Positions 21,189-63,812 of a stretch of DNA of 64,000 nucleotides are shown here, piece by piece. The position numbers and the translations under genes were made by a program. Source of the stretch: Tubiluchus corallicola. Lineage: Eukaryota; Animalia; Priapulida. The stretch lies in contig JAQGDQ010000016.1 of the NCBI GenBank assembly GCA_030141605.1, positions 560,282 through 624,281 on the forward strand. Direction: 5' to 3'. Numbering within the stretch: position 1 is the first letter of the stretch; each line of letters begins with the position of its first letter. Under the pieces are notes generated by a model. It was not told where the DNA came from. It saw only the letters and a list, made by a program, of their open reading frames with translations, and ran no database searches.

Positions 21189-24100
21189 ATGAAGATTTCT
21201 GCAGCGCTATTTCTCCTAGCCGTCATTGTCGTATCAGAAGTGGCAGCAGGTGATGACATTCCAACCTGGGAAGAATTTAAAGCCACGTATCGTAAGTTTG
21301 TTCCTCAGCTGTTCAATAGATTGTTTACAGGTGGTAAGAGTGTTTGTAACCTGCAAACCTTTTCATTTTTTGTATTATGGACGATTATCAGCAAGTTATA
21401 ATCTAAGTACATACAGCTAAAAACTGTTCACATAAATGTATTTTCTAATCATTTAGATCAAATCATTTGTTGTTCTATCACATTAAAATTTTGCTCAAAC
21501 CATATGTGGTCCAAGCTACTGGTACATATGCCATTTGCACTAGATATTGGAATAGATCCACAATTAATAAAGTTTAGAAGCTTAAACTGGCCGAAATGGA
21601 GGTAAGGTGGAAAAATGAAGAATGAAGCTTGTTTTGAACCGGGACTTTTAGTTCAAATCCCGGCTCACATCTTTCAATGAAGCAAATCTAGGCCCATTTT
21701 TTACATTTGTCCTCTTTCAGTTAAATTCGGTTTCAATTTTTTTATTGTGGACTAGTATGAATCATTATTTAATAATTTTTAAATTAGGATTACAAGTAAT
21801 TGCTTTTGGGAATGTTTTTTCAGTGCAACTTGATTTTTGTTGCGTAATGCATAGGATATTTATATAGCGTTCGCGTAATTATAACATGTCGTCAATAAAC
21901 TTACGTGCACGTAACCTTCTACAGGGCGCACAGTGCATACTATGGAAAATCTGTATGACACAATTACTGGACGCAGATTTTTACTAGTCTGCGGCTTCGA
22001 TAAATGAAGTTTTGCGAACTTTGTCACACAGATATTAAGCATGCTTAAATTTCGGTGTCCAAGAAACGCCTCCTGCTCGTCAGACAAAATCAGATCAGAC
22101 TAATAAAAAGCAACGATTTGTCATCTGGTAATGTGACGTTTGCACTGTCTGAAGCAGACTGCTCCATATAAACGCCACAATTCGCATCTGACAGTTTTGC
22201 TCGATTTTTAGAGCGTGCGACTGCGACTAGTATTCTGTTTTATGTCGATGTATGTACGTTACTATTTCATATATGCATGTATGAAAGCAAATTCTTTCTA
22301 ATTTTATACTGCCTGTTTTGAAACTTTTAGAACTTGCAAGTGGCGCACTGCTTGGTGTTATTTTTTTGAAATTTTAAATGTCTTAATACAGATAAGCACT
22401 ATGGTGGCACAAGAAAAAGCGAAGAAAGTCGAAGACATCGTATATTCAACCGGAACGTAGCAAAAATACGTGCTCACAATAAACTTTATGAAGAGGGGAA
22501 ATCAACATACAAACTGGGCGTAAACGCCTTTTGCGATCAAGTAGGTACTTTAAAATATGCGTTGTTTCTCTTGTGGTGTGCTGTATTGGTTATTTGATTA
22601 CTTAATTTCGCTAGTTGAAATAATTAAATTAATTGTGCAAATTTCCATAATTATCATCAACATTTTTTATTACAATTGGGCTGTTTACGTTCTTCAGCAA
22701 TCCATTCGTTTCTATAAGGAATAAATTTAGAGCTTAACTCCGTCTCTAACATTGTGCATGGGCGACCAAGTAAAAAATTGCTGAATCTGTTCTACTTCGA
22801 GTGATATAAGATTCACAAGATATACCAATTCATTCTATGATATAAGAAAAGTACGAATAACCTGAATGACAAGAAGAAGTTAATCACATGACATAATGTA
22901 AAAAACAGAGCTGTTTACGCAAGAGCACGTCAACAGTAGAAATACATCATACAAAATTACAAAGATTATGACTCACTAGAATGTTGTTGGGTAAACAACT
23001 TACAGCTTTTTAATTATTATAATCTTAAAGACAGTAAAACAGCATGGGGAACTCATGATAAAATTCTGACATGTTTTTACTTTAAAATCTCTTGTTTTTA
23101 ACTCGTATTTTTAACATCGTCACTGTTAATATTGTGAATTACGAGTCATCAACAATCCAGAATCGAACCCTGAACCTTTACGCTCGAATAGTAAGGGGAC
23201 AAACCAAGCAGCTAACAATACGTTTGTTTCTTCTTCAATATAATACTTATACACACATAAATGTAACTTTACAGTATCGACCAACATATATTTGCGTAGA
23301 TCAGCTAATGTAACTTGCCTTTTTGCAAACAAATTGCAAATTGTAATTGTAACTAGAAACCAGTTTATCATATAACTTGTTTACAATAATCAGAACTATT
23401 TTATGATGCAAGAAATAAGAACAACACTCCCGTACGCTTGCTGCTTGCACGTAGGTCTTTCAGATAAAGTATTATTGCACCCCTACATAAATAACTAAGC
23501 AATAGCGATGTTTTATCACCTGATCCGCCATTCTTACCAGGTTTGAAAATTTTAATTGCTGTTCTGATTTGGTCAACAAACACTACATAGTCGCTTTGTT
23601 TTTAATTTGAAAGTGCAGATTTTCGTACAACGAAATAAGCGAAGATATATAAGCTCTTATGCTGTTAGATAACAGTTTTAAAGGTGACGAAAGTTGCTTG
23701 CAATTCGTTTTTCAATGCGTTGTATTAGTACTTGTTTCATCAATTTTTCTAGGTCTTAATTTCACACCAAAACTGCCTATCACTGTTAGAGGAAATCGGC
23801 ATCCATCTTACGTTTTTATACTATATTAGTAGCAGCTCGTGTATAGGTACTGTGGAAGTGCAGCAACCCTTATTTTCACTCAATATTATTGATAATATTC
23901 AATATGATAAGTCTTTGTTCTTTAGTTTCTTTGCACATGTAGGGAACTAGAGCACGTGAGGATAGTGCTACATTTGCTTCACAGCCCAGCACAGTGCACT
24001 TCATCAACGCGGTTTCGGCTGTTGTGCGCATGCGGCCATGCGCACATGTCTCAGAGAGTAGTGTCGCTTACTGTGAATGGATCAAGCGTGAACTGCGACA

Positions 24101-26663: not shown

Positions 26664-29600
26664 GACATATATATTTGCACATTAAATTGTATATATATGT
26701 ATACAAATTTATATTTTCGGAGCTAAATTGGTTTTACACTGTTATTATAAACATCATCTTTACATGATATAACATGACATAACACAAACAGAAAGTATAA
26801 TGACAAAATTCTGTCAAACGTTTGTATAGATAATTGTATCATAATAATTTTTGTTCATCACGGTGTGGTGCAGTGTCTCATCATCGCGACGCTTAAACTT
26901 TGGCAAGATGTGAATTCCGTCGTAGAAAACGGCAGCTGGTATTGCAATTTTATTTTTCAATATCTTGTACACCTGGCGCTTTACACGACAAATTGGTAAA
27001 CAGTTTTTGGTACCCAACAAAACCATTCATAAGCTTAAAGGTGTATTTCGGTATTATAGATATCAAACTGTGTGTTATCGGGGCTTATACTAATTGTACC
27101 TTGTTTATAGGTTATGAATCTTATAGTCTTAAGATTTTTCCGTATTGTTTATAACCCCATATAGATTTTCCAAACAATAATTACAGATCTAGTTTTTAAA
27201 TTGGCATCAGCCTTTCGTTTGAACGTCATAATATTTATTTAATTAAATCTCGTATAATTGCCTGGTTATCTGGGAATTGCACTTCACAAAAAAATCACAA
27301 CCTGCAGTTTTCTGACAAATGACACCAGACCAAAGGTCAAATAATCTCTTGTCAAATAACTTTCAGTTCACCTTATAGAGAGCTTTCATTTGATATACTT
27401 CAAGCTAGTGTTGCTTCAAGGTGGAAGCATTTGTCTCGCCACCCCCATTTTTGCCCCTGGCGGGGTAATATAACAGCCCATCTCATTATAACCTACACCA
27501 TTCGATTCGTCTCATCGACACCTATCATTTGACATTTTACAAGTTATTGTCACTCGATACTCGAAAAACTTCTGGCATCAACCCCCAAATTTCAGTTTTT
27601 GCTTCTGGTGCAAAATTTTTGCCATATTTAGCTATGGGCAAGACCTGATTCACCTAGCCGCATTCCAAAAAATGTAGCTCAAAAGTTCCTATGAGTAGGC
27701 AGAGTCTGACCAAAACAAAAATGGGGAAGACCCGCCTATTCCGGACCTTTGACTCGACATTCCTGGGAACATATAAATATAGTCTTCTTTATCTCGGGAG
27801 TGTGAGTTTTGTGTCCAAATCTTTTGTGCTTTCTGCGTCTAAAAGGTTACCAAAAGCAGGCATTTCTGATTTTGATTTCGGCTCCCCTCTCAAACATTCA
27901 AATCGCCCCAGATTTTTAAAGACGCCCATATACATATCTACCTTACAGTACCTAAACAAAATTGTGGAAAAAAATTAAAACAAATTAATTTGGGCAGGAG
28001 TTGAATCACAACTACAGAATGGATCGACGCCCTTCACCCTTTTACCACAGGTCAGAGGCCAACACTCTACTGACCTTCCCCCACCCATGGCTACACACAC
28101 TGTAAGATCGTGATCGTAGCTTACAAACTTAACGAGTTAATTAAGCAAAATGATTGCGGAAAATAAAGGTTCAAGAAATAACAACTGTATGGCTTTGAAG
28201 AAGATAGCAAAATATTGATTATATCATTAATTAATAGTCTTAAGACTAATAACATAAATAAATTAATAAACCTAATAAGCTAATGTATGGTTAATTTTGA
28301 AGTAGTTGTTATGGACACATAGGCCATTGAAATAGATAGGTAATTTAGACACAAAGATGTTTAGACAAGGTACACTTAGGATTGGAATGTGACGTGGTAC
28401 CGTTTAGTTATATGTACACTGTTGTTGGAGCGAGTCACGAGTGCATTTAAACTCTTCTTGGAACGACGATATGTTCTGGGCCAAGTATTTATTCGTGTTG
28501 TTGTCTTGTTCTTGAAATGTACACACTTAATAAAAAGTGCTAAGACTCTCGATAAGATCTTGCAGGCATGCACATTAAGAAACTACTTCGCTTTCGCTTT
28601 CTCCCATCAGCAATTACAGCTTGCAGGTCAAAAGTTACAAAAACATTAGGGTGTTTCCCTAATATGCCGTTGTCCGCACAGATAGTCTCAGTTTCTTTCA
28701 AGTTGAAAAGGAAAATAAGAATGTGAAAAGGTTTTTTTAAATAGATCACCGTGCTCATTTTTGCATCTGTTATTATAACTGTAATCCTCCTGTATTATGT
28801 ATAATGGTATAATGGTCCTCCTACTCCTCCTTCAAATCTTACTCCTCATCTTTCCGTTCCTCATTATCATTATCATCATTACGTAGAGGCCAAACGATGT
28901 ATGTGACAAAAACAGCTTGTGTCCAAATTACCAATGTGTCCATAATACGTTATGTCAAACACCTTGTGTATCCACATGACCTCTATGTCCAAAATACTAT
29001 GTGCTCAAACGACATATGTGTCCAAACTGCCTGTGTGTCCAGAACAATCCGTTTTCAGTTTACTTACGTGCCATATCACCTAACCTATGTGCAAATTACC
29101 TGTGTCCAAAATCTGTGCTCAAGTTGCCTATGTGACCAAGACTACCTGTGCCAAAATGTTTTGTTTCGAAGTGTCTGTACACCCCTTTTGCTGATGTTTG
29201 TAATATGTGATAGAGGAAATGTCTGATTCAGAGGTGTAGCCGGTGTTTTGCGATGAGATCACTGCACCAGGCAACTGAATTACCTTAAAAGTCATGGACC
29301 GTAATTGCTATACATGACATTAAACCGCTCTCAGTGGATACTTTACCAGCCTCATACTAAGTAACTGTTCTGTCATAGTTGCTTTTGACTTTTTCTCAAT
29401 TTTAAGAATACTGCGCTCAACACACGATACTGCATTGAGAAAAGCCTTCAGTCAGTTGGAGAATACAGTGACCAACATTTAGTAGACTGCGACACTTATG
29501 ACAATGGATGTAACGGTGGATGGCCGTACAACGCATATTACTACATTTGGAGAAATGACATTACAATGAGGGCAGACTATCCCTATGTAGCAAAGGTAAT

Positions 29601-32076
29601 GCGATGTTACAGATTATAGATTTCCGATTACAGGTTATAGAACTTTATTTTTGAAATTCATAAATTGTTCTGAATGAAAAAAAGGAATGAAAATGGGCAA
29701 GCGTGAGAACTGCATGCCACATTCACGAATTTGAACAAATTTATAACAAGGATGCCTAATTTTAGGATCAGGCATGTAAGACGGGTGTTGACCCTTCTAA
29801 TGTAATTTCACCAGGTAGCGGTGTGGTATACCGACCTAGAGCCAACTATAACTGCAAGAAAGAGTAAGTACACTACAAACCTTTAAACGAGTAACTGGTT
29901 TTACAGAATATTTTACATGTAATTGTGCTGTTTTATTGTTATCGTTAAAAAAACTTGTATTGCCTTGCCTGGTGACTTATTTACAGGTGTGCTAAAATAT
30001 TTGTTTATATATTTGTTCTTTCAGAAATTTTGTATTTATTCATCTTAGAAAATGAAAAACGATATTTGAATATTTAAATTTTGTTTCCTTGCAATTTAAA
30101 ATATGATGCCGATATCAGATTTTGCCTGATTGATAAAGACTGCTTGTATTTACTCACCTTTTTTGTCAGCAACACAGTCTTTGGTAAATATTCCTCATGC
30201 TTTTTCTTGAAAATTATCACTTTGGCAATTTGAATGTGAAGTTAGTTTACGCGATGAGTAGTAGCACATTCTAATTGACCTATTGGTACCTATCTTTGCT
30301 ACCTGTTATGTTGCTGTTAATTTATTTTGCGTGTTGTATGTTTAGAAATATTCTTAAGTTTTCTCTGGTCTTAATTATTGATTTGATTAATTATAACTAA
30401 CTAATCAATAATTTGAGACGGCTCTTGCAGTTCACGAGGTCAGAAATTCCTAAATTTCAGGAGGTTAATAAGTTTTTTCGTACAGCGAAACAGGACAGGT
30501 ACAATTTTCTCCGGAACGTTTAAGGACACCGACACAAGGCCGTTATATACTTGATTGCATAAACAACTATATCCCGTTAATTTTTCACGCAGAATCACAC
30601 TAACACTTCAATAACACCAATTAACGCATTGTCATTTTAAACAGTGGATTGCCAGGAGATGAGTCATGCATATTAAGCGCTTTACAAGATGGACCTGTTG
30701 TTGTTGCTATTAACGTAAACAGCAATTTCTACCAGTACAATGGCGGTAAGTGAGTAAATCATAGTGAATTAGAAAATAACTGGTTTAGAAGTTAACATCT
30801 ATGTAAAAACCAGCATTATATCAAAATAAATTTTGGTGCAAATTAAGTTTAGGAAAATGCGACGTTGAATGAGACTATTTGCTTTGGATTCTGCAGGAAT
30901 GTAGGCACATTATTGGTTTACTGATCATTGGTGGATAGATATGATAAACTTGTATTTTATAAAGCCACGTGTTGTTTGCAGGCCAAAGTTATTCAGGCTA
31001 TTTGCGTGTATAAGTAAGATAAAATCATTATTGTTAATTGCACGAAAAGGTGTTTAACTGCAAACCTGATCGTTAGCGATGTTCTGTGTAAAGTGTGAAA
31101 TGAATAGATTTGGAACTGATTTGGCAATAAGAGTCGTAGTTTTTTAAATGAAATTAAAAACAAGAGTAGGTCTATAAGTAATAAAAACATTAATTTTTTA
31201 CGAGTTTTCGACTCGATTACAAACCGCATAGTTGAAAAAATGAAAAGACGAAGCAAGCAATTTGACTTAGCCCTGCTAGCTAGTCATAGCAAGATTGTTG
31301 GTACACATAAACTTCGATAAAGAAGAGTAAATAATACTCTAAATATTATTTTTATTTACAATTACATGTAGGTAATTATTACATCGCATGTCGTCTTAAA
31401 TCACATAACACTGGAGAAAATGCTAAACAAATGTTTGATCAACTAAAATGATTAGCTCTACTTTGTAAATCTGTTTTCTCCTCTCGGTCACAAGACAGAA
31501 ATATCTAACCTCATATTGGTGAATCCATAAACATACGAATGAAAAAATCTCTCTTTTATAGCTCTTGTTTAATTGTTTAATTAAACCAAACTGCATGCAC
31601 GGAAATAGTGAAACTAATCTAGTAATTTTATGCTGTAACAATTAATTGTGCATAGGTGTTCTTGAAGATGGGTGGTCCGGTTCTTTCCATCACGCAGTTA
31701 CTGTAACTGGAGCTGGGGAGACCGCTGCCGATGGCAAATTTTGGATAGTGCAAAACAGGTAGACTTGTAATGTATAAAGTGTTGTTAATATCGGCTTGTT
31801 TAGCCATGGAAATTGTGCCTCTGTTTAAAAATCTTTTTAATCTCAAATGTTTGCTTTTTGTTTCCTATTATTTCACAAATTCTTGTATAGTTTTGGCACC
31901 ATTGAATCATCGATAACTGTTATAATATAAATGTCATTGTTTCAAACAAATGCCTATGTTGTAGTTGGGGCACTTCGTGGGGAGAAAACGGCTACATTAG
32001 AATGAGACGAGGATTATCAAACAACGGCTGTCTTGGCATCAACTCGTACGTGATGTGGCCTGAAGTACAAGCCTAG
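21189..32076 (+). CDS. Papain-family (C1A) cathepsin L-like cysteine protease, paralog 2 (9 coding exons)
   Basis: Exons 21189-21291, 22392-22540, 24477-24629, 25964-25996, 29407-29595, 29766-29863, 30645-30745, 31656-31758, 31965-32076; all GT-AG and in frame. Signal peptide, ERFNIN, GVNAFCD, QGSCGSCWAF, GCNGGWP, HHAV, QNSWG. Confidence 0.94.
26129..26220. repeat. (ATT)n microsatellite
   Basis: About 30 units. Confidence 0.97.
26541..26660. repeat. Imperfect (CA)n microsatellite
   Basis: Directly visible. Confidence 0.93.
28885..29180. repeat. Degenerate ~20-bp minisatellite (TGTGTCCAAA core); reverse-complement copies near 33690-33965
   Basis: Repeated (C/T)TGTGTCCAAA / TATGTGC(T/C)CAAA units; the 109-aa ORF over it is a by-product. 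Confidence 0.7.
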
Positions 32077-43938: not shown

Positions 43939-46900
43939 AAATAATATATTTATATTAATATATATATATATATAATATATAATATGTATATATTAAGTAA
44001 ATATACAAAAAACCATTTAAGCAACAAAAACTGCACATTTGAATTTTCCATACAATTTGCTAACAGCAAACGGCTTTTCGTTGAACATCCTCAGTGAGAT
44101 CTCAAACTGGCTAGTTGGTCTGGAAAAAACGAAATTACCACACTTTTTTAACGCGTATAACACCTATTATTATTATCATTATGTCGTATTGCATATACAA
44201 CATATGCAACTATTTTTGTATTCGGATATGTCCAAGACAAGTATTGTACTGTTTTGTCTGGTTTTGTTTAACTTTTTTTACCTTGTATATGCCAAAGATA
44301 CCTTTTGATATGAAATTATTACCAAACGTCTAACTGTTATTTCGTTTTACTGTAATTAAGTTTCATAGGATCTCATTGAGGAAATTAATGGAGAAAGGAT
44401 GCTTAGAAACTGTACATCAAATACAAAAAATACGCGATTTTGTTGCTTAATGATTATTATTAGATTCAATTATTATTTTGTTTCCACCTCGAAACACAGG
44501 CACTATCTGAATTGCGTGAGTGACCAATTACTGACAAATTACATTACAGCCAAATTACATTTAGCGCAGCCAAATAAGTACTCGTTGAAGACACTGCATT
44601 TTTTCTTTATGTGTATACCAGTTAACCACGTTAAGTATGCGACGATGCATTACTTATGGTGAACCAGCCATTCAATATAGCGTTCAACATTTGGTCGAAT
44701 GTGACACGTCCAATGATGGCTGCAATGGTGGATGGCCGACATTTGCGCTGAAATGGATTCAGGCTAACTACGTAACTAAGAATGCCGTTTATCCTTATGT
44801 AGAAACGGTAAAAATCGAGCATTTCGTGTATTCAGTTAACAAATCTGTTACGGCGCGTTCAGACTAGAAAATTTTCTGCCTGAAAATAAACTCACAAGTG
44901 TGAATGGCTTTGCGAGTTCTCTCGGCAAATTTGCAAACTCTTCGGAGTTGCTGAGAATTCCCTCCGACAAGAAGCGCTCAGCATAACGCGACAGAACACG
45001 TTGTGAGAGAGAACTCGTGAGAGAAAACTCTCTGGTCTGAACGCGCTGTAAAACAGATAATTTAAAGAGTTTAGAATATAACTGAGAATAATACTACTAT
45101 TAGTATTATTTCAAAATCAACCCTGTGTGCGTTACTCATAAATTACTGTTATTACAAGAAGAACACCTTCAATTGGTCAACTATTATGTAAAATGTAAAT
45201 TGCATGTATAATGTTACCTTATTGCTATATAATAATGATTTAATACAGTTAAACCAAGATCTCAAAGAATTTTAATCTTACATTACTTAACATTATAACA
45301 ATGTTTAATCATTGGCATTACATTACCTTACTTCACCATTACTTTAATCGTATTAAGTAATTATTAAGTTATGAATAAATAACATATTCCCCTTCCTTTA
45401 AAGGGGCCTAATATGGGGAAATTGATCAAAAACCAATAGGTCAAAAACATGCCGTCTTCGTGTGTTTAAAGTGTTTCCTTAGTTTGTAATTTATTTTAAT
45501 GTATTTAATGTATGTCAATCGCATAAAAACAATGTGTTTGGATACTTAGCAAAGTTGCTATCTTGGTAGAGAGATTTGACTCTGCCTTCTCACAGTCCCT
45601 AAATTTTTTGAAGCTTAATGTTCTTGTTTGCTAAAATAGAGTAAGTAAATTTGTAGACTATTTTAATTAATAATAACTATCATGTCTACTGCAGGGTGGT
45701 ACATAACTCTTTACTTGGGGAAGAAAAACAACAAGTAACAATACAGAACAATTTATTACATTAAAGTATTGTTCAAACAATATCGAATCTAAAACACTCT
45801 CAAAATTTGGTGTGGAAGACTCATACCTTTTACACAGACTGCAATGTTGAGGGGTGTGACTGGAGCGACTAGTGTAGAACTCAAGATTCCTCAGATATCT
45901 AACAATCTTATCTGTTAAATATTGATCAGTTTCATGATTTTTTACCGTTTTAACATCCTGTTTGTCTTTCAGGATAGCTCTTGTGTGTGGTGGGGCTGAG
46001 ATCTGACGAATTTCAAGGGCATTTAATTCAATCAGAAAAATTAATCCCAAAGAGTTTCCAGGAAGCGCAAAGCTTTCATACTTAACTTTGAGGGCATGGT
46101 AGATTCTCTATTGTTTTAGCAAGCCTTTGATGTAATAGTTTGTTCTGTTTTTGTTTCTGTATATAAAATGTTATGCACCACCACGTACAATGTGCGTACC
46201 ACCCTCTGGAAAGCAACGCGCAATAATAGCACAAAGCATTTTGTTGCATGAAACTTTTGCTGAAACAGTAGAGAATCTATCACGTCTCCAGTCGTCTCAC
46301 ACAATCGACTATTTGAAGACTAGTGGTGATCGAAGCAAGCAACCCGAGAACTCTGTTATTGTTTTTTCGATCGAACTGAAAGACCTGAAAATCATCCCTA
46401 CCAAACACACTGTAGCCTATTCTGATAGACAGAACTCAGGCTAATGTAATTTAAGAACATGTCACAGATTGATATTCAAAAGTTATGTTTCTAAGACACC
46501 TTTAAGAAGCGTTCAGAGATCTTGAGTTCCACCGTGATCTGTTCAATCATCTCCATCAAAATTGCAGTCTGTGCGCGACGTCCGAGACTATCCCACTAAA
46601 TATTGAAGGCAGTAACGTGCCACTCTGTTTAATGTCTTCAGAAGTTTGATTGTTCAAGTAACGTTGCGAATGCTGAGAAAATAGAGGGGCAGAATCTTCT
46701 AGCAGGAGCATATCAATACAGCGGCTGGTAAGTTCCTGTTTTCTCTCAATAACTGTGCAGATGTGAATTATATCGTAAACACAATGCATTAAATTATACT
46801 GAGTAAAATATACTGGAAGATTACTGTACCCAAAATTGCTGCCGAAGAAGACTTATAATTATTGTTCATCATTGTCGTTCATCATAATTATGCCCATTAC

Positions 46901-50857: not shown

Positions 50858-54475
<3,618 letters not shown>

Positions 54476-54575
54476 CTTAAAAATCAGTCACTATGATCAC
54501 AATTTTAAGCACTGCAACAATTTATAGCAAACATAACTTGTGTATTGAGAACCCCCTTTTCCATTTAAGCTATAT

Positions 54576-55005
54576 TGTGCTGATTTGTTTAAACTTGTGT
54601 TGCCCCCTCTTTTCTGTTATAAACTGGTTTCCTTTTAAACAGGTCATGTGACCAGACTTTTACCTGTACACTTACCTGTAGATTGGAGTAACTCAGGTGT
54701 TCACACACTGCAGTGACAAATTGTTTAGCGTCAGTCATTGATTTGTTGTTATAATTTCATAATTACACTTATAGAAGATCACCATGTAAGTTGATTTCTT
54801 AATTTCTTAAATGTTAAACTTTGTTTATTAAAAAGACTAGAGATTAGATTGTGTAATTTACCTAAAAGTTTGTTAAAGTTAATTAGATCAATTTAGTTTA
54901 GATTTCGCCGTAAAATTGAGTAAATTTATCTTATTTGTTTTCAGATTAAACGATACAAGCTACACAATTATGTTGTTGGAGTTTTTTTTATAAGAAGGTA
55001 GCACA
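54576..55005 (+). repeat. 5' LTR
   Basis: Matches 61956-62385 with 7 substitutions (all transitions) and no indels. Confidence 0.98.
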
Positions 55006-55235
55006 GTTTAATATGATTCTGGGTGTAATTGACATGGACGACAGCTATACCGTGTGTCCTTGAGCCAAGCTGGTATCTGGGGCAACACTGCAGAGCGGTT
55101 TAACTTCGAGCTATGCTACGTGTTCTGGACTATACCTGATAGTATTATATTGACAATGAAGCCAGCGCTGCTGTACGATACTACAGGATTTTACATTACC
55201 AGCAAGTAGAAATATATTTGGACTTTTAAAGCAAA

Positions 55236-56795
55236 ATGACTGATCCTTCAAACCAAATTCAGTTGAGAAAACTTGAACTTAAAAATAAAAAGCAAGAAGA
55301 ATTAAGAGATATCCTTCGTGAAAGAGGGTTGATAGTTCATGGTAATAAAGCTGAATTAGTCACGAGGATAATCGAAGATGAGCAGTCACGATTGCAAGCA
55401 GCAAGCACTCATGACAAGGAAGCCGGAGCTGATGCGGATGAAAAATCAGCAAAAGCAACTTCAGAGCGGAAAAGCAAGCATAGCGCAAAGGGAGCTGAGA
55501 GGGATTCTCAATTCGCATCTTCCAAGACAGCTTCAAAGATGAGTGAGAGAAAGTTACGACTTCATGAACTGAAAATACAAGAGCAGGAATTAAAGCTGCA
55601 AGCAATGAAAATAAGGCATGAACGTTTGCAGAGTGAATTCTCAGGTGAGCAGAAGTCGCAGGTAACTGGCATTGAACCAGCCAATTATGTGGCGCCACCT
55701 GTTGCCGAAAAATCGACTAAACAAAAGGTCGCTGAGTGGTTGAAGCAATCTGAAGACGTATCTGCAGATTTGCAACAAATAAGTGGAAAGCTTGAAGGCT
55801 CCAATAGTACAAATAAATACAAAACGGAAGCCTTCGTAACTCTTGCAACAAATGACAAGTATGCTTTAGGCGCTTTAGTTTTAGCAAGCAGCCTGCGTCG
55901 TGTTAGTACAGCTCGTTACTTAACTGTCATGGTCACAAATAATATATCGCAAAATATGATGAGGCATCTTCGCGATAAATTTGACTATGTTCAACTAGTT
56001 GAAACAATAGATAGTAATGATCCAGAAAACCTGTATGTATTAGGAAGACCTGAGCTGAATGTAACCTATACCAAATTACATTGTTGGCGCCTCACACAGT
56101 TTAGCAAGTGTATTTTCTTGGACGCCGATACGTTGGTCCTGCAAAACATTGATGAACTCTTCCAAAGAAAAGAGTTTTCAGCAGCACCTGACGTCGGATG
56201 GCCCGACTGTTTTAATAGCGGCGTGTTTGTGTTTCAGCCAAGTATTGACACGTTCAATCGACTTGTTTCGTTTGCGACGTCCACGGCTAGCACGTTTGAC
56301 GGAGGTGACCAAGGAATGCTAAACCAGTACTTTAGTAATTGGGCTACAGATTATGAAAAACATTTACCTTTCGTTTACAATACTGCAATGCAAGGGCAAT
56401 ATAGTTACCAAAACGCCATCAAGAATTTCGGCGAGAATATCAAAGTTGCTCATTTTATAGGTGCACACAAGCCTTGGGATGATATCCATAATTCACGACA
56501 CAGGTACGTGGCTCCTCCTATGGGCGACGCAAGGTATGAATCAAGAATATTCAGCGAGTGGTTTCATATTTACAATGCTGACGTTATGCCTATGTTACAG
56601 AAGCAACGTAAATGTAATGAAGCGCGATATAATTTCCGTGATTTTAAAAACTTGCCCGCAGATGACTTAAATGTTTCAGCACCCACATTTGCCCCCGGGT
56701 TTCCAAGTAAAAGCGTGAGCCTTTGCTCAACCTCATACGTAGGCAAACATAAACAACTGCCAGCAACGTCGGCTATAGATGAACCTACTCGCTGA
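55236..56795 (+). CDS. N-terminal Gag-side ORF (519 aa): SAP domain, coiled coil, glycogenin (GT8) catalytic domain, PAM2-like motif; in frame with downstream Gag-Pol across one TGA
   Basis: SAP pattern EELRDILRERGLIVHGNKAELVTRI; glycogenin motifs AFVTLATND.Y, TKLHCW.LTQFSKCIFLDAD, SAAPD.GWPDCFNSGVFV, FDGGDQG.LN, HLPF.YN, YSY, HFIG..KPW; then LNVSAPTFAP. Confidence 0.95.
   Translation: MTDPSNQIQLRKLELKNKKQEELRDILRERGLIVHGNKAELVTRIIEDEQSRLQAASTHDKEAGADADEKSAKATSERKSKHSAKGAERDSQFASSKTASKMSERKLRLHELKIQEQELKLQAMKIRHERLQSEFSGEQKSQVTGIEPANYVAPPVAEKSTKQKVAEWLKQSEDVSADLQQISGKLEGSNSTNKYKTEAFVTLATNDKYALGALVLASSLRRVSTARYLTVMVTNNISQNMMRHLRDKFDYVQLVETIDSNDPENLYVLGRPELNVTYTKLHCWRLTQFSKCIFLDADTLVLQNIDELFQRKEFSAAPDVGWPDCFNSGVFVFQPSIDTFNRLVSFATSTASTFDGGDQGMLNQYFSNWATDYEKHLPFVYNTAMQGQYSYQNAIKNFGENIKVAHFIGAHKPWDDIHNSRHRYVAPPMGDARYESRIFSEWFHIYNADVMPMLQKQRKCNEARYNFRDFKNLPADDLNVSAPTFAPGFPSKSVSLCSTSYVGKHKQLPATSAIDEPTR
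55824..56597 (+). other. GYG1: Captured, intronless glycogenin catalytic domain (about residues 197-454 of the ORF)
   Basis: Colinear with human glycogenin-1 residues ~3-265 as I recall the sequence, at an offset of about 194: D296-A-D298 = D102/D104 and Y389 = acceptor Y195. The symbol indicates family, not orthology. Confidence 0.95.
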
Positions 56796-59700
56796 TTGCA
56801 ATGGATGGACCAGCCTCAGAACATGACAGCATTCATGAATATCATGCGTGAGGGACAGCGTCAGCAAATGAACATGTATAATGCCATGCAGCTTCCTGCA
56901 GTTGAGCTTGAAAAATTTGATGGCAACGTGATGCATTTCTGGCATTTTATTAAGCGCTTCGAGGCCAGTGTAGAGAATTACACAGAAGATGAGGCAGCAA
57001 AATACACAAGGTTACTACAACTCTGCACTGGACGAGCTAAGGCTGTCGTGGAGAGTTGCCATTATATGGATCCCCATATGGCCTTTAGACGTGCTAAGTA
57101 TTTGCTAACAGAACGTTTTGGATATCCCTACATGGTAACTCAGGCTTGGTTGGATAAAATTAACAATTTTAGTTGTATAAAAATACAGGAGCCAGAAAAG
57201 TTACAGGAGTTCTCAGATGCACTTGTTGGGTGTATTGAAACATTAAAATGCATGAACAATTTGAGTGAAATCAATACTCAATCCGGTTTACTGCAAATTA
57301 TTAGAAAGCTGCCATATAAGTTCCAAGACAAATGGAAGGATGTTGTGTGCCGGTTACTGAAGACGCAAAACAGGAACCCATCCATATATGATGCAGTTGA
57401 CTTTGTGAAAGAAGCAGCAGAGAAGATGAATCATCCAGTATATGGAGAATTGTATAACAATGGCCCAAAGAGAGTAAAGCAAGGCAGTGCAGCCAAAAAC
57501 TTTGCGAGCATTTCTAGAAATATAGCAACTCCTGGTGCTTCTACGCAAGTTACAAGGGTGAAAGAACGCAATCTAGAAGAGAGCAAGAAGCCAGGAAACA
57601 ATGGCAAACAATGCTTGTTGTGCAACTCGGCTGAGCATGTATCATTACAAAAATGCAAAAAATTTAGCACGATGAATGACATCGAAAAATTGGCATACAC
57701 AAGGAAAGAACGTTTGTGCTACAATTGCCTGGCTAAAGGGAGACACAGAGCCTACCAGTGTACAAAACCACCCTGCGATGTGAATGGATGCAACCGGAAA
57801 CACTCTTCCTTACTTCATCATGCATTAGAAAGAAATGCACAAGCGCGGCAGAACGATGCAGCTAGCCAAACGGAAATGGATCGGCAAAGCACAACTCGAG
57901 CAGTCTCGTGTCTAAATAAAGCTTCCTACACAGTTACAAAGGCGGCGTTACCAGTACTGCCAGTCTTAGTACATGTAGAAGGGAAACGACCTGTAAAAAC
58001 ATTGGCATTATTAGATCCAGGTTCTACAAACACCTTTTGTTCAAAAGCACTGTTTAATCAACTTGGAGCCAAAGGAAAAGAAAATGTTCTGTTGTTAACT
58101 ACTATAGACAAGAAACATAGCAGGACTGACACTATGGTAACTAGCATGACAATCATGAGGATGGATAGAAACAACCATATAGAGCTCCCTTGTGTATTTG
58201 TTCGGCCTACTCTCATGTTAGATGTTCAATCTCTAGCAACAGTTGAAGATGTGATAAAATGGCCGCATCTCCGAGACTTAGATGATGTTCTAAAGAGCAT
58301 AGAGAAGAAAGATCAAATGGAATTAGGTCTCTTGATTGGTCAAGATGTCGGTGAAGCATTAATTCCCCTGGAAGTAAGGACGGGAGAAAAGGACGCCCCA
58401 TATGCCATTAGAACCAAACTAGGTTGGACGCTTAATGGCCCTATAGGGGGCGGTAGAGTCAATATGTCAGTAGCAAATAACATGATTTTAATGAACGAAA
58501 TGCAGAACCAGGATGAAATACTGCAAAACCTCGTTGAGAGATTTTGGAAATTGGACAGTGTAGATAACGATAGACGTCTGTCCAGAGAAGACATTAAAGT
58601 ACTAGATATTTGGGAGAAATCAATCACAAAACGAGGTGACCATTATGAACTGCAGATACCATTCAAAGAGGAAAAATGCAAATTACCAAATAGCCGGGAG
58701 ATAGCAGAAAAGAGGCTGGCTAGTTTGGGCACCAGACTAAGCAAGAATCTAAAATTACATGAAAAATACACCGAGGAAATGAATGATTTACTTAGAAAGG
58801 GATATGCGGAGAAGGTTGAAGAAGCAGACGACCAAGATGACACAATGAAATGGTATCTCCCACATTTTCCTGTTTATAATGAAAATAAAGCTGACAAAAC
58901 TCGGATAGTTTTCAATTGTGGAGCGAAATGTGATGGCATCTCGCTGAACATATTAGCATTACAGGGACCTGATCTGACCAATACACTTCTTGGAGTATTA
59001 TTGCGGTTCAGGGAGAAGCCCGTTGGAATGATGGCAGACATAGTGGGCATGTTTCATCAAGTCTTCGTTGCTCCTCAGAACAGAGACATGCTACGCTTCC
59101 TATGGTGGCCAGATGGACAATTGGATAAACCACCACAAACTTATAGGATGACAGTGCATTTATTTGGAGGGGTTTGGTCCCCTAGTGCAGCATCCTTTGC
59201 AGTCAGGCGCACAGCAACAGATAACGTGGAAAACTTTGACTATGAGGCAGTCAGTACTGTACTGCGCAATTTCTACGTTGACGACTGCTTGAAATCCGTG
59301 GATATAGCAGAGCAAGCTATTAACCTGATTTCTTGCTTGACTGCCTTACTTGCCAAGGGAGGCTTTTGTTTAACCAAATGGACCAGCAATATCAAGCAGG
59401 TTTTAGCAGAAATCCCGGAGGAGCACAGAGGCAAACTGGTTCAAAATTTAGACTGGGCTCATGATCCACTTCCCATTGAGCATGCCCTTGGGGTCAAATG
59501 GGAGGTCGAAGGAGACACCTTTGGAATCCAGGTCAAAACTAGGGATAAACCTCACACCAGGCGAGGACTTCTAAGCTCACTGGCTTCGGTATACGATCCC
59601 CTAGGAATGGTAAACCCATTTGTCTTGCAAGCAAAATTGCTTTTCCAGGATGAATGCCGCATCAAAACAAAGTCTTGGGATGATAAATTGGAGGATGCAA

Positions 59701-59933
59701 CTGAGAAGAAATGGATTAAGTGGAAGAGCGAATGCCAACTTCTAGAGAGTTTAAAAATGAGCCGTTGTGTGAAGCCTTGCGATTTTGGCACGGTTTTGAC
59801 AAGTGAACTGCACCACTTTTGTGATGCATCGCAATATGCATACGGAGCTGTTAGTTATATACGATTAACGAATGACTGTGGTTCAGTTCATGTATCATTC
59901 CTAATGGCAAAGTCTCGTTCTAGCGCCAATTAA
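56796..59933 (+). CDS. BEL/Pao Gag-Pol, part 1: DUF1759 capsid region, three Cys/His knuckles, aspartic protease, reverse transcriptase, start of RNase H
   Basis: LEKFDGN..HFW.F; CLLC..H..C, CYNCL..H...C, C...C...HSSLLH; ALLDPGS (58014); WYLPHFPV, GPDLTN.L, ADI..MF.QV, H.FG...SP, YVDD (59274-59285); LHHFCDASQYAYG. Confidence 0.96.
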   Translation: MQWMDQPQNMTAFMNIMREGQRQQMNMYNAMQLPAVELEKFDGNVMHFWHFIKRFEASVENYTEDEAAKYTRLLQLCTGRAKAVVESCHYMDPHMAFRRAKYLLTERFGYPYMVTQAWLDKINNFSCIKIQEPEKLQEFSDALVGCIETLKCMNNLSEINTQSGLLQIIRKLPYKFQDKWKDVVCRLLKTQNRNPSIYDAVDFVKEAAEKMNHPVYGELYNNGPKRVKQGSAAKNFASISRNIATPGASTQVTRVKERNLEESKKPGNNGKQCLLCNSAEHVSLQKCKKFSTMNDIEKLAYTRKERLCYNCLAKGRHRAYQCTKPPCDVNGCNRKHSSLLHHALERNAQARQNDAASQTEMDRQSTTRAVSCLNKASYTVTKAALPVLPVLVHVEGKRPVKTLALLDPGSTNTFCSKALFNQLGAKGKENVLLLTTIDKKHSRTDTMVTSMTIMRMDRNNHIELPCVFVRPTLMLDVQSLATVEDVIKWPHLRDLDDVLKSIEKKDQMELGLLIGQDVGEALIPLEVRTGEKDAPYAIRTKLGWTLNGPIGGGRVNMSVANNMILMNEMQNQDEILQNLVERFWKLDSVDNDRRLSREDIKVLDIWEKSITKRGDHYELQIPFKEEKCKLPNSREIAEKRLASLGTRLSKNLKLHEKYTEEMNDLLRKGYAEKVEEADDQDDTMKWYLPHFPVYNENKADKTRIVFNCGAKCDGISLNILALQGPDLTNTLLGVLLRFREKPVGMMADIVGMFHQVFVAPQNRDMLRFLWWPDGQLDKPPQTYRMTVHLFGGVWSPSAASFAVRRTATDNVENFDYEAVSTVLRNFYVDDCLKSVDIAEQAINLISCLTALLAKGGFCLTKWTSNIKQVLAEIPEEHRGKLVQNLDWAHDPLPIEHALGVKWEVEGDTFGIQVKTRDKPHTRRGLLSSLASVYDPLGMVNPFVLQAKLLFQDECRIKTKSWDDKLEDATEKKWIKWKSECQLLESLKMSRCVKPCDFGTVLTSELHHFCDASQYAYGAVSYIRLTNDCGSVHVSFLMAKSRSSAN

Positions 59934-61872
59934 GGGTCTCACAATTCCCAGACTGGAGCTGTGTTCAGCAGTACTAGCAGCAACAATGGACAAAATCCTA
60001 AGAGACGAGTTGTCTTTATACATAGATTCCTCAACTTTCTGGACTGATAGTGTCATAGTTCTGCAATATATAAGAAACACTACAAAACGGTTTCACACGT
60101 TTGTGCAGAACAGAGTGACTCAGATTCTTGAAGTTTCATCTCCCATGCAGTGGCATCATATAAATTCACTGGAGAACCCTGCTGACGACGTCTCCCGTGG
60201 GATGGATGCGGCTTCCTTGATAGCCTTGGAAAGATGGAAACATGGACCAAGTTTTCTGCTAGAAACTGAAGAACATTGGCCACAACTGAACATAGATGCA
60301 GAGAAAGACAGGATAGAAAACGACAAGGAAGTCAAGAAAGTGGCTGCAGTTAACAACATTGAAGCGAAAAGTGAAGCAGATGTAGATGTCATCAATCAGC
60401 TGATAAAGCATTACTCATCGCTATATCGATTAAAGAGAGCGGTAGCATGGATACTGAGAGTCAAAAGAACACTTCTAGCTAAAATTAAAGGAAAAGATCT
60501 CACTGAACTGGCTCACCTGGCAAAGCCTGAACTGGATGGAGCCTTACACGAAATTACAAGGCATGTACAACGAGAATGCTTTGGTGCTGAACGTAGAGCA
60601 CTAAAGTCAAAGGATCAGCATGTCGCAAAGTCAAGCACCTTATACAGACTAAACCCATTTATGGACGAAAAGTGTATCCTGCGTATTGGAGGCCGCCTGA
60701 AGAGATCAACCATGAATAGAGAAGTAAAGCATCCAATTATTCTACCTAAAGGTCATAGACTTTCTCGGCTTATTGTAAAACAATTCCATGAAGAGAATGG
60801 TCATGTTGGAAGAGACCATGTAATGGCATTGGTAAGAGCAAAGTTCTGGATCGTAGGCATAAGAGTGATTGCTCGACAAGTTTGCCATGAATGTAGAGAA
60901 TGCCGACTACGTCATTCGCAACCTATGAAGCAGAAGATGGCTGACTTGCCGAAAGAGAGGATTGAATGTACTGATGTGTTCTCTGTGGTTGGAGTGGACT
61001 GTTTTGGTCCTTTTCTTGTCAGACGTGGCAGAGTAGAAGTAAAACGCTATGGACCACTATTTACGTGTCTCTCAACTAGAAGTATCCACTTAGAAGTGCT
61101 ATACGCCATGACAACGGACTCTTTCATCAAAGCTTTACACAGATTCTGCAGTAGGAGAGGAAAACCCACCAAGATTAAATCAGATTGCGGAACGAATTTT
61201 GTGGGTGCAGACAAAGAGCTGAAGAAGTCACTGTTGGAATGGAATCAGGACGTAATAAGCAATGAGCTACTGCAGAAAGATATTGAGTGCCAGTTTAACC
61301 CTCCAAATGCACCCCATATGGGAGGAATATGGGAAGCTATGATAAAAAGAGTAAAGAAAGTGTTACAGTCAGTAATGATGGAGAAAATCACCGATGACGA
61401 AGGCCTACACACACTATTTTGTATAGTGGAAAACATTATCAATAGCAGGCCTCTAACGACACTTTCTGATGATCATGCAGACTTTAACCCTTTGACGCCA
61501 AATCACCTTTTGCAGATTCATTGTGAAACCAGCCTACCACCTGGCAAATTTGTTTTGGCAGACATCTACAGAAAGAAATGGCGGCAGATTCAGCATTTAG
61601 CAAATGTCTTCTGGCATCGATGGCGAACTGAGTATTTGCCAATGTTACAGTACCGCTCTAAATGGAACAAAGAGAGAAGGAACATCCAAGATGGAGATGT
61701 CGTTCTCATCATGGACAATGCTCCCAGAAATTGCTGGTTGCTAGGGCGCGTGATTGAAAGACATTTTAGCAATGATGGATTAGTCAGAAGTGTCACCCTC
61801 AAGACCAAGGATGCACTTCTACGAAGACCCATCCACAAGCTCTGCCTGATAGAAAGTGTATATGATAATTAG
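59920..61872 (+). CDS. BEL/Pao Pol, part 2: rest of RNase H, integrase (HHCC, DDE) and DUF5641, after a 1-bp frameshift
   Basis: Removing one T at 59918-59919 restores KSR-LAPIKGLTIPRLEL. Then FWTDS, NPADDVSRG, H...GH...C..C, GVDCFGP, SDCGTNF, GGIWE, LTPNHLL and DGLVRSV. Confidence 0.95.
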   Translation, partial: LAPIKGLTIPRLELCSAVLAATMDKILRDELSLYIDSSTFWTDSVIVLQYIRNTTKRFHTFVQNRVTQILEVSSPMQWHHINSLENPADDVSRGMDAASLIALERWKHGPSFLLETEEHWPQLNIDAEKDRIENDKEVKKVAAVNNIEAKSEADVDVINQLIKHYSSLYRLKRAVAWILRVKRTLLAKIKGKDLTELAHLAKPELDGALHEITRHVQRECFGAERRALKSKDQHVAKSSTLYRLNPFMDEKCILRIGGRLKRSTMNREVKHPIILPKGHRLSRLIVKQFHEENGHVGRDHVMALVRAKFWIVGIRVIARQVCHECRECRLRHSQPMKQKMADLPKERIECTDVFSVVGVDCFGPFLVRRGRVEVKRYGPLFTCLSTRSIHLEVLYAMTTDSFIKALHRFCSRRGKPTKIKSDCGTNFVGADKELKKSLLEWNQDVISNELLQKDIECQFNPPNAPHMGGIWEAMIKRVKKVLQSVMMEKITDDEGLHTLFCIVENIINSRPLTTLSDDHADFNPLTPNHLLQIHCETSLPPGKFVLADIYRKKWRQIQHLANVFWHRWRTEYLPMLQYRSKWNKERRNIQDGDVVLIMDNAPRNCWLLGRVIERHFSNDGLVRSVTLKTKDALLRRPIHKLCLIESVYDN

Positions 61873-61945
61873 TTTTCTTAGTAATTGACACATTACTTAA
61901 AATGTTAATTAAAGGAGATAATGTAAATGCTAAAAGGAAGCATTT

Positions 61946-61955
61946 AAGGGGGCGG
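61946..61955 (+). other. Polypurine tract
   Basis: AAGGGGGCGG immediately before the 3' LTR TG. Confidence 0.85.
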
Positions 61956-62385
61956 TGTGCTGATTTGTTTAAACTTGTGTTGCCCCCTCTTTTCTGTTAT
62001 AAACTGGTTTCCTTTTAAACAGGTCATGTGACCAGACTTTTACCTGTACACTTACCTGTAGATTGGAGTAACTCAGGCGTTCACACACTGCAGTGACAAA
62101 TTGTTTAGCGTCAGTCATTGATTTGTTGTTATAATTTCATAATTACACTTACAGAAGATCACCATGTAAGTTGATTTCTTAATTTCTTAAATGTTGAACT
62201 TTGTTTATTAAAAAGACTAGAGATTAGATTGTATAATTTACCTAAAAGTTTGTTGAAGTTAATTAGATCAATTTAGTTTAGATTTCGCCGTAAAATTGAG
62301 TAAATTTATCTTATTTGTTTTTAGATTAAACGATACAAGCTACACAATTATGTTGTTGGAGTTTTTTTTATAAGAAGATAGCACA
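61956..62385 (+). repeat. 3' LTR
   Basis: 430-bp direct repeat of 54576-55005, followed by TATAT. Confidence 0.98.
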
Positions 62386-62599
62386 TATATGATGTGGAAA
62401 AACTTTTATGAAGATCCTGCAGTACCATTTAGAAAAAAATTATGTCACTCTTTGATGTGGGATATCAACACTATGTTCCCCCAAAATTCTCTTACATTAC
62501 TTCTATGTAGAATCTCGTAGCCATTACGTAGGATAAATTGTTAGAATGTCAGTTCTTCCTCTCAGGATGTCAAGGCCACATTATTTCATTTTAGGGAAA

Positions 62600-62900
62600 A
62601 ATATATCTATGTTAACGGCCATGTATGAAATTCAGACATTTTACAAAAATTCCTAGGCATTTCATATAACATCTATGCATTTCAGCAAAAGTGAGAAATA
62701 AATTTTTTGCGGCGACTCTTTCACACTTTACCTAGGCGTTTCGTATAATAGCTAGGAATTATGTAAAATGTGTAAAGTGACTTTGGCAATGTGTAAAATG
62801 TACATATTTCGCCTTGAATCGAACTTTTCCTAGCTATTTTGTACATTACTTAGGCATTGCAATGGAATGCATAAAACGATTTAGTCAATGTGCTAAACTA
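62600..62900. repeat. Degenerate short-motif repeat with inverted arrangement (CCTAGGCATT / TGTAAAATG), probably a non-autonomous element
   Basis: Recurrent CTAGGC(A/G)TT, TGTAAAATG and CATTTTACA motifs in both orientations. Confidence 0.4.
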
Positions 62901-63812
62901 AGTAAGCTATTCAAGTAAGCCGGTGAGTTAATTATTTTACTGTAACGACATCCTGCTGAATCAGATGGATCACTTTCCATAGCTTGGAATTAATACTGCA
63001 GCCAGGATTCAGTAAAGTTTCTAAGAACAATGTTCTTCATAAGTTTACGCAAACCGACATTCTTAGCGCCACACACAGATTCGTTAAACCGGTTTTCTTA
63101 AAGATCTTCTTAAGCGTGAGGCTTAGAGTTTGCATAAAAACAATTTTCCATGTTGTGCTTAGTTTAAAGGCAGTGTAAATTGTTTTCGTATTATTTTTCT
63201 TGCCAGATGGCAGCATCCAGCTTAAAGAGTTTAATACGCGCACAACAGTAGGGCCTATTTATAACCTGTACTCCACAATAATTATAAAGATCCTACAAAA
63301 GCTTTTCCATACGGTACAAAAGTTTAGATATTGTAAACGCTGCAAAACGCTTATCAAGGTGTAAACTTGCAGCAGACTAATTTGTGAACAAAAATTGGTG
63401 TCCTTTGCAGCACTTATAGTGTTTAGTACGTCTATACGAAGAGTGTGTATACCTTATCAAGACGAAATAGTACTTTTGTCACATTGTTATTTAATTTATT
63501 TCCTGTTATTCCATTAAAAATTGTTTTAACAATGGGTAAACGTAATAATGAGCGATTTTCGTAGGCTAATTCCAGCTGAACTAATAATGGACTTATAAAC
63601 ACTACTCGCTTCTTTCTTCTATAAACGATGGGAAATAATGTTCTCTAGGCTTACAAACAACTTTTTCACTGTTTCATTTACGTCAGATTGCTTTCATCTG
63701 TAAGAGACGTTGATGATCTCTATATAGGTCTGTGTTTTCGTGATTCTGAAATGCTATAAACATGTAAACTTTTTGACAACCACCTGGGCACGTATAAGCG
63801 TAGGTATACCAT

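Follow-up and report, generated by a model that had tools for sequence, protein, structure and literature searches.

What is a glycogenin-like domain doing in the Gag reading frame of an LTR retrotransposon of the priapulid Tubiluchus corallicola, and is it kept there for a function? The element lies in a stretch of 64,000 nucleotides (contig JAQGDQ010000016.1 of assembly GCA_030141605.1, positions 560,282 to 624,281 of the forward strand), which we call the window. The window is approximately 33% GC and contains microsatellites together with intron-split cathepsin and aquaglyceroporin genes.

The element and its insertion site

A BEL/Pao LTR retrotransposon of 7,810 bp occupies positions 54576-62385 (Table 1). 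Its coding order is SAP, GT8, DUF1759, three Cys/His knuckles, protease, reverse transcriptase (RT), Peptidase_A17 (the RNase H region), integrase, and DUF5641; the protease, RT and rve matches lie below the Pfam cut-offs, the motifs being nevertheless present. This order, the LTRs and the target-site duplication give the BEL/Pao layout, and all testable features place the element in this group, for which we take Belpaoviridae to be the virus-family name. The two LTRs are 98.4% identical and, since they differ at just seven positions, all of them transitions, the insertion is young. A canonical tRNA primer-binding site was not recognized, there being no TGG immediately 3′ of the 5′ LTR (55006-55030). 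The copy in the window is broken, with one in-frame stop and one frameshift.

The aquaglyceroporin gene is AQP3/7/10-like, and the element lies antisense in one of its introns, approximately 100 bp from a splice acceptor, where it could affect splicing. Exons of tandem papain-family cathepsin genes are found on the plus strand at 7202-7426, 9533-9811, 22370-22594, 29389-29616, and 44589-44864, with matches to Inhibitor_I29 and Peptidase_C1 (five of the 81 frames scanned, picked from 148 listed).

Table 1. Features of the element and its surroundings (window positions)
Feature	Position	Strand	Basis or remark
Aquaglyceroporin exons; upstream intron contains the element	51297-54475	-	Pfam, sequence comparison
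Target-site duplication, left copy, TATAT	54571-54575		sequence
5′ LTR, 430 bp, TG...CA	54576-55005	+	7 differences in 430 bp from the 3′ LTR, all transitions
ORF1: N-terminal part of Gag with glycogenin domain; ends at in-frame stop	55236-56795	+	ORF, Pfam
SAP domain (PF02037)	55278-55379	+	Pfam, E 3.9e-08
Charged Gag stretch, probably coiled-coil judging by sequence	55380-55823	+	Pfam families: 0
Captured intronless glycogenin catalytic domain (GT8, PF01501)	55824-56597	+	Pfam, phmmer
TNDKY	55848-55862	+	ORF1 frame
TYTKL	56064-56078	+	ORF1 frame
DAD	56121-56129	+	sequence, alignment mapping
NSG	56214-56222	+	ORF1 frame
DGGDQG	56298-56315	+	ORF1 frame
Acceptor arm (domain residues 187-205)	56382-56438	+	alignment to animal glycogenins
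QYSY	56397-56408	+	first Tyr (acceptor) at 56400-56402
HFIG	56451	+	ORF1 frame
KPW	56469	+	ORF1 frame
YNADVMPML	56571-56597	+	ORF1 frame, domain end
PAM2-like motif in linker between glycogenin domain and capsid region (lead only)	56667-56696	+	pattern
In-frame stop separating ORF1 and ORF2	56793-56795	+	same frame on either side
ORF2: capsid, Cys/His knuckles, protease, RT, Peptidase_A17	56805-59933	+	Pfam and motifs
Capsid DUF1759, in ORF2	56916-57341	+	Pfam
Cys/His knuckles (three), in ORF2	57612-57821	+	
Protease motif DPGS, in ORF2	58014	+	
RT motif YVDD, in ORF2	59274	+	
Peptidase_A17, in ORF2	59556-59918	+	Pfam
Frameshift region, ORF2/ORF3 junction	59900-59990	+	frameshift near 59925; one X5 contig
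ORF3: integrase (H2C2 zinc finger, DDE core) and DUF5641	59986-61872	+	Pfam and motifs
Purine-rich tract 5′ of the 3′ LTR	61936-61955	+	sequence
3′ LTR	61956-62385	+	LTR pair comparison
Target-site duplication, right copy, TATAT	62386-62390		sequence

The glycogenin domain

The motifs named in a previous sequence-only reading of this locus (TND.Y, T-x-T-K-L, DAD, NSG, DGGDQG, QYSY, H, and KPW) were all located in one open frame, that of ORF1. The domain is without introns and lies in frame within Gag, following the SAP domain and the charged stretch and approximately 100 codons 5′ of the capsid domain. In a phmmer search against solved structures, human and rabbit glycogenin-1 aligned with its residues 2-258 (E 3e-87), the matched range in 3t7m, an entry of 263 residues, being chain residues 5-262. 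Both borders therefore fall where the crystallised catalytic domain itself begins and ends, and the similarity ends, as had been noticed, after YNADVMPML. The DXD and the His and Lys of the metal/donor site are retained in this GT8 catalytic domain.

Cellular glycogenin glucosylates its own Tyr to a chain of 8-12 residues and recruits glycogen synthase through its C-terminus, according to the available text of PMC9188544. A profile of this synthase-binding tail, built from 138 unique C-terminal motif stretches of homologues, matches 232 of 240 glycogenin homologues, partly by construction, but finds no match when run against the element in all six frames (best E 0.44), which bears out the earlier remark that the synthase-recruiting motif is absent. 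Judged from these alignments, what the element carries is a glycogenin-derived catalytic domain and not a full glycogenin (EC 2.4.1.186).

Just 3′ of the domain lies a short motif, presumably of the type named PAM2, whose pattern occurs in nine of 5000 shuffles of ORF1 and which was noticed after the fact. It has no Pfam match. Such a motif could allow Gag to bind poly(A)-binding protein; no paper on a PAM2-like motif in Gag was found among the titles and abstract openings searched.

Other copies of the element

Contigs from public sequencing runs, five in number, were mapped on the element; the run with the best cover may be the source sample. In three studies the whole element is covered by contigs, no listed contig crossing all of it. 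One X3 contig (55121-55945) links the 5′ region to the glycogenin domain, and the domain is linked to the capsid side by one X1 contig (56321-56844; 69 differences) and one X5 contig (56352-57024; 92 differences), both about 86-87% identical to the window copy. Since the domain is joined to Gag in copies approximately 14% apart, its capture predates the split of those copies and belongs to the element family, not to one copy. The in-frame stop is present in none of the six contigs that cover it (four X1, one X3, and one X5, from three studies); it is a lesion of the window copy, and the family thus reads from SAP through glycogenin to capsid in one frame. The frameshift at the ORF2/ORF3 junction, where one X5 contig crosses 59025-60255 with a single gap, is probably also a lesion of this copy. 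The X5 contigs are spread evenly over the element (a lack of cover at about 56110-56260 carries no weight as evidence) but barely cover the flanking host DNA, and X5 may represent a sister lineage. The runs listed as carrying the element included no RNA run, and one presumed RNA run (X6, 14 million letters) gave no contig on the element. Exons of a host glycogenin did not appear among the mapped contigs, a set from which some contigs of conserved genes are dropped, so that this too carries no weight.

The contigs reveal several further features of the family. A decayed copy of the domain (X1 contig, 56069-56349), with frameshifts and a stop in DGGDQG, has synonymous differences in common with the X5 variant and is an older subfamily in the same sample. 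Summed contig depth is far higher on the LTRs than on the interior, and X1 contigs contain joints from 59838 to 61788 and from the LTR to 55986; many solo LTRs and deleted derivatives probably exist. At 56317 there is a loose contig end, where another LTR or an intron could terminate. A separate high-copy repeat is found at 62646-63300; several runs have numerous loose ends there, at 62646, 63164, and 63215.

Comparison with animal glycogenins

The domain was compared with 106 non-redundant animal glycogenins, obtained by reducing at 90% identity the 230 of 240 homologues which have the full domain. Identities range from 52 to 60%, the nearest sequence being that of Mya arenaria (59-60%). The element domain forms the longest terminal branch of the 107 sequences (0.60 versus a median of 0.11) and keeps 72 of 76 near-invariant columns and just seven of 68 variable ones, values which combine change on the host lineage with change in the element, the host glycogenin gene not having been found. 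Its placement in the tree has a support of 0.13, so that it is unplaced and we do not name a donor.

Twenty-four of the 25 functional positions mapped from human GYG1 are kept, the exception being the Pro after the acceptor YSY; for positions other than Y195, Y197, W128, and D160 the roles are those which we presume. Surface residues for donor, metal and acceptor are among the kept positions, as are the donor and metal residues distant from the dimer interface (T9, N10, Y13, R75, K84, DAD, H210, and K216). The PDxGWPDCFN loop and the H/P/F interface residues are conserved, and the acceptor Tyr (Y195) is kept with all of its contacts (Y197, W128, and D160; contact residues of GYG1 from the available part of PMC12267440).

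The alignment to metazoan glycogenins, which had been proposed as a check, thus has two sides: the conserved columns are mostly kept, and the acceptor arm departs from them. Six of the 12 conserved columns of the arm are changed, whereas elsewhere in the core the figure is 14 of 130 (P 0.002). Both Tyr residues of the arm are kept, while Asn at position 56412 replaces a Pro that is invariant in all 106 glycogenins; a comparable departure of the arm is seen in two of these 106 and a change of the Pro in none. Among the listed differences between copies, four non-synonymous ones fall in the arm (56416-56424). Together these departures and copy differences suggest that self-acceptance may be relaxed. 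On the evidence of this alignment the arm around the acceptor Tyr is remodelled in the element, which is a new observation. The C-terminal helix region departs as well, at five of 11 conserved columns.

Selection on the domain

Clean domain borders and conserved motifs had earlier been read as signs of selection for activity, and distance from the human sequence between the motifs had been noted. The capture, the borders, the loss of the tail and the selection are all supported. Distance from the human sequence was rejected as evidence, the proper comparison being with animal glycogenins and with other copies of the element, and mostly synonymous differences between copies provide a better basis for selection. 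Forty of 145 difference positions between copies, picked by support, were listed, and 35 of them lie within the domain: 19 synonymous, 15 non-synonymous, and one stop. Random change would make 21-28% synonymous, as against these 19 of 35 listed positions (P 1e-5 to 8e-4). Of the listed positions supported by X5, 11 of 17 are synonymous and 13 are at third positions (expected share 0.21-0.28; P 1e-4 to 1.5e-3); when those private to the window copy are set aside the ratio is nine of 12 (P 9e-4 or less), whereas two of the five private positions are synonymous, as under neutral decay. The listed positions absent from X5 have no third-position excess (7/18, P 0.39). Four X5 pieces, comprising 703 bases mostly in the domain, contain no gaps. 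The domain is thus kept in copies approximately 14% apart with an excess of synonymous change, which points to a family-level capture, and by this codon-level evidence it is under purifying selection in the element family.

The uneven codon positions of the 35 listed differences and the absence of gaps in the X5 pieces are not those of a neutral processed pseudogene. Raw divergence per region was rejected as evidence of selection, X5 differing about equally in the domain (100/703, 14%), in gag-pol (488/3678, 13%), and in the 5′ region and linker (about 14%).

The CpG observed/expected ratio is 1.08 in the domain (55824-56597) versus 0.56 and 0.55 in pol (56805-61869), and the domain contains 36 CpG where 19.9 are expected under pol codon use (P 7e-4). 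Unlike pol, the domain is not CpG-depleted, which suggests a later arrival or a different history.

Would the need for an open frame suffice to explain this conservation? The domain might be a chance capture that landed where Gag tolerates an insert, kept merely to avoid stops, indels and misfolding upstream of capsid and Pol, since any in-frame insert at this point must stay open; the drifting acceptor arm and the CpG content of a late arrival would fit such a history. We consider it unlikely: the synonymous excess among copies is greater than an open frame alone needs, and the surface catalytic residues, which folding does not require, are all kept. Moreover, listed changes within DGGDQG occur only in the contig with frameshifts and a stop, and a useless insert of 774 bp could be deleted in frame, yet this one is present in copies that differ by approximately 14%.

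Predicted homodimer

Modelling of the homodimer gave a score of 0.50, where the highest-scoring of three controls reached 0.00, with a pLDDT of about 81 and runs that share at least 86% of contacts. The mark used for this score is reached by 21 of 30 solved pairs, none of 23 single chains, and seven of 16 animal pairs. The predicted interface is the known glycogenin interface and includes W126, D159, and Y195, the equivalents of GYG1 W128, D160, and Y197 (PMC12267440, available part). Modelling of the dimer had been proposed earlier; the predicted dimer is like dimers already solved, and its score may therefore come from the memory of the model.

Slightly less probable than accidental retention is a domain that serves only to bring Gag molecules together through the two-fold interface of glycogenin, its catalysis being vestigial. 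The conserved loop and H/P/F residues, the predicted dimer (with the same caution about memory) and the altered acceptor arm are what one would expect of such a module, but a pure scaffold has no need of T9, N10, Y13, R75, K84, DAD, H210, or K216, all of which are kept.

Possible function of the domain

The domain retains the donor site, the Tyr and the dimer loop but has lost the tail; on this basis a self-glucosylating Gag is the simplest mechanism, and since the domain lies in frame in the Gag polyprotein the likely substrate is Gag itself. We tentatively favour the reading that Gag-borne glycogenin dimers self-glucosylate with short chains and without recruiting glycogen synthase. In the proposed sequence of events, a spliced animal mRNA would have entered the element during reverse transcription by template switching, as its intronless state and what is generally known of LTR elements suggest. 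Two domains would pair as Gag molecules come together, and glucose from UDP-glucose would be transferred, with Mn2+, to the kept Tyr of the Gag-borne domain, giving short alpha-1,4-glucose chains of approximately 8-12 residues on the Gag precursor, as in cellular glycogenin. The tail being gone, glycogen synthase would not be recruited and glycogen would not grow. What the element would gain is the weakest link in this sequence; plausible gains are the nucleation of Gag assembly and the tethering of particles to glycogen-rich cytoplasm or glucan-binding proteins.

That the domain is selected does not make it active, as had been supposed. Human GYG2 keeps Y228 and the D160/W128 contacts and yet rarely or barely self-glucosylates (PMC12267440, in the part available), from which it follows that conserved motifs do not guarantee activity; selection on the domain holds, and activity stays a supposition.

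A frozen donor site with a changed acceptor arm would also suit an enzyme that acts on another acceptor. The domain, freed by the protease or working in trans as a fusion, might pair with host glycogenin, as had been suggested earlier, or glucosylate a different acceptor, and in this way change how germ cells prime glycogen or use UDP-glucose. Pairing with a partner that has no tail could separate host glycogenin from the synthase recruited by the C-terminus (PMC9188544, available text), and non-functional glycogenin-1 alters glycogen storage in the human heart, as stated in the accessible part of PMC7046021. We place this possibility below the two preceding alternatives: the acceptor Tyr and its partner Tyr, expected for self-acceptance, are both kept, no cleavage site was identified, and no sequence of a host partner was found. 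A misassembly or chimera, or a processed pseudogene sitting in one dead copy, might be suspected from the broken window copy and from the lack of a listed contig crossing the whole element, but is very improbable, as contigs of X1, X3, and X5, including copies about 86% identical, bridge the left border and likewise the right, and at either border the domain continues the frame of Gag.

The favoured self-glucosylation of Gag has a bolder extension, which we regard as rather doubtful: particles may coat themselves with maltooligosaccharide, the donor site being frozen and the arm re-tuned for Gag, so that transposition would be linked to the glycogen economy of germ cells.

Searches for relatives and comparison with known systems

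No fused relative with a retrotransposon Pfam family was found among the best 120 of 400 matches (910-2595 aa) or the best 120 of 2978 matches (285-909 aa), and the non-glycogenin parts of the element had no blastp match among those listed proteins. A search of proteins over 1825 aa with the Gag region gave nothing among 2414 candidates (a weak negative), the 80 of 378 metagenome loci that were examined had no Gag or Pol match, and viral contigs yielded nothing useful beyond one match of 28 residues; the Gag-region and viral searches retrieved no pol relative. In the ESM Atlas the domain falls into ordinary glycogenin clusters at 0.85-0.86 and the N-terminus has no usable match; the three ORFs are absent as exact sequences from a collection of 15 billion. 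We take these protein and contig searches as weak negatives with regard to fused relatives. In the literature searched, at the level of titles and abstract openings and without Repbase reports and most subscription journals, we found no report of a glycogenin or glycosyltransferase within a retrotransposon.

Animal glycogenin-1 (human 3t7m, rabbit 1ll2) shares with the element the whole catalytic domain, the DAD, the His and Lys of the metal/donor site, the acceptor Tyr, and the dimer-loop residues; the element domain differs in having no tail and no introns, in being embedded in Gag, in its remodelled arm, and in forming the longest of 107 branches. With BEL/Pao elements, as described in the available text of de la Chaux and Wagner (2011, PMC3118150), the present element has in common the LTRs, the 5-bp duplication, DUF1759, three knuckles, the order protease-RT-Peptidase_A17-integrase, and DUF5641, and it adds an enzyme of 258 residues within Gag; that text names just env as extra cargo.

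In-frame host cargo in LTR polyproteins is already known. Abrusan et al. (2013, PMC3597677) counted 51 incorporations in consensus sequences of transposable elements, with selection in nine of 24 testable cases; for BEL the accessible part lists PHD fingers and, in BEL1-I_SM, a truncated fragment; GT8 is absent from these entries, and none of the "glyco" entries is a GT8 either. The planarian gypsy elements Burro and GYPSM1 and dUTPase-bearing LTR elements likewise carry host-type domains in frame in Gag-Pol; they differ in being gypsy and not BEL/Pao, their cargo lies after Gag and concerns apoptosis, ubiquitin or nucleotides, and no sugar-transferring enzyme is named in the part of PMC6431247 available. 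Baculovirus P13 is likewise a predicted GT8 protein on a mobile animal genome, but a large DNA virus encodes it as a gene of its own and, in the accessible text of PMC4133818, it is neither termed a glycogenin nor fused to a capsid protein.

In the cases of cargo consulted here, the subject is chromatin, ubiquitin, apoptosis or nucleotides. An enzyme in Gag that primes carbohydrate and is under selection would, if true, represent a chemistry of retroelement particles not described in the literature searched, and a natural tail-less glycogenin with an altered arm could serve as a probe for the role of the arm and of the invariant Pro in chain initiation. Should the domain prove inactive, the element would still show clearly that a retrotransposon family can retain an entire enzyme domain.
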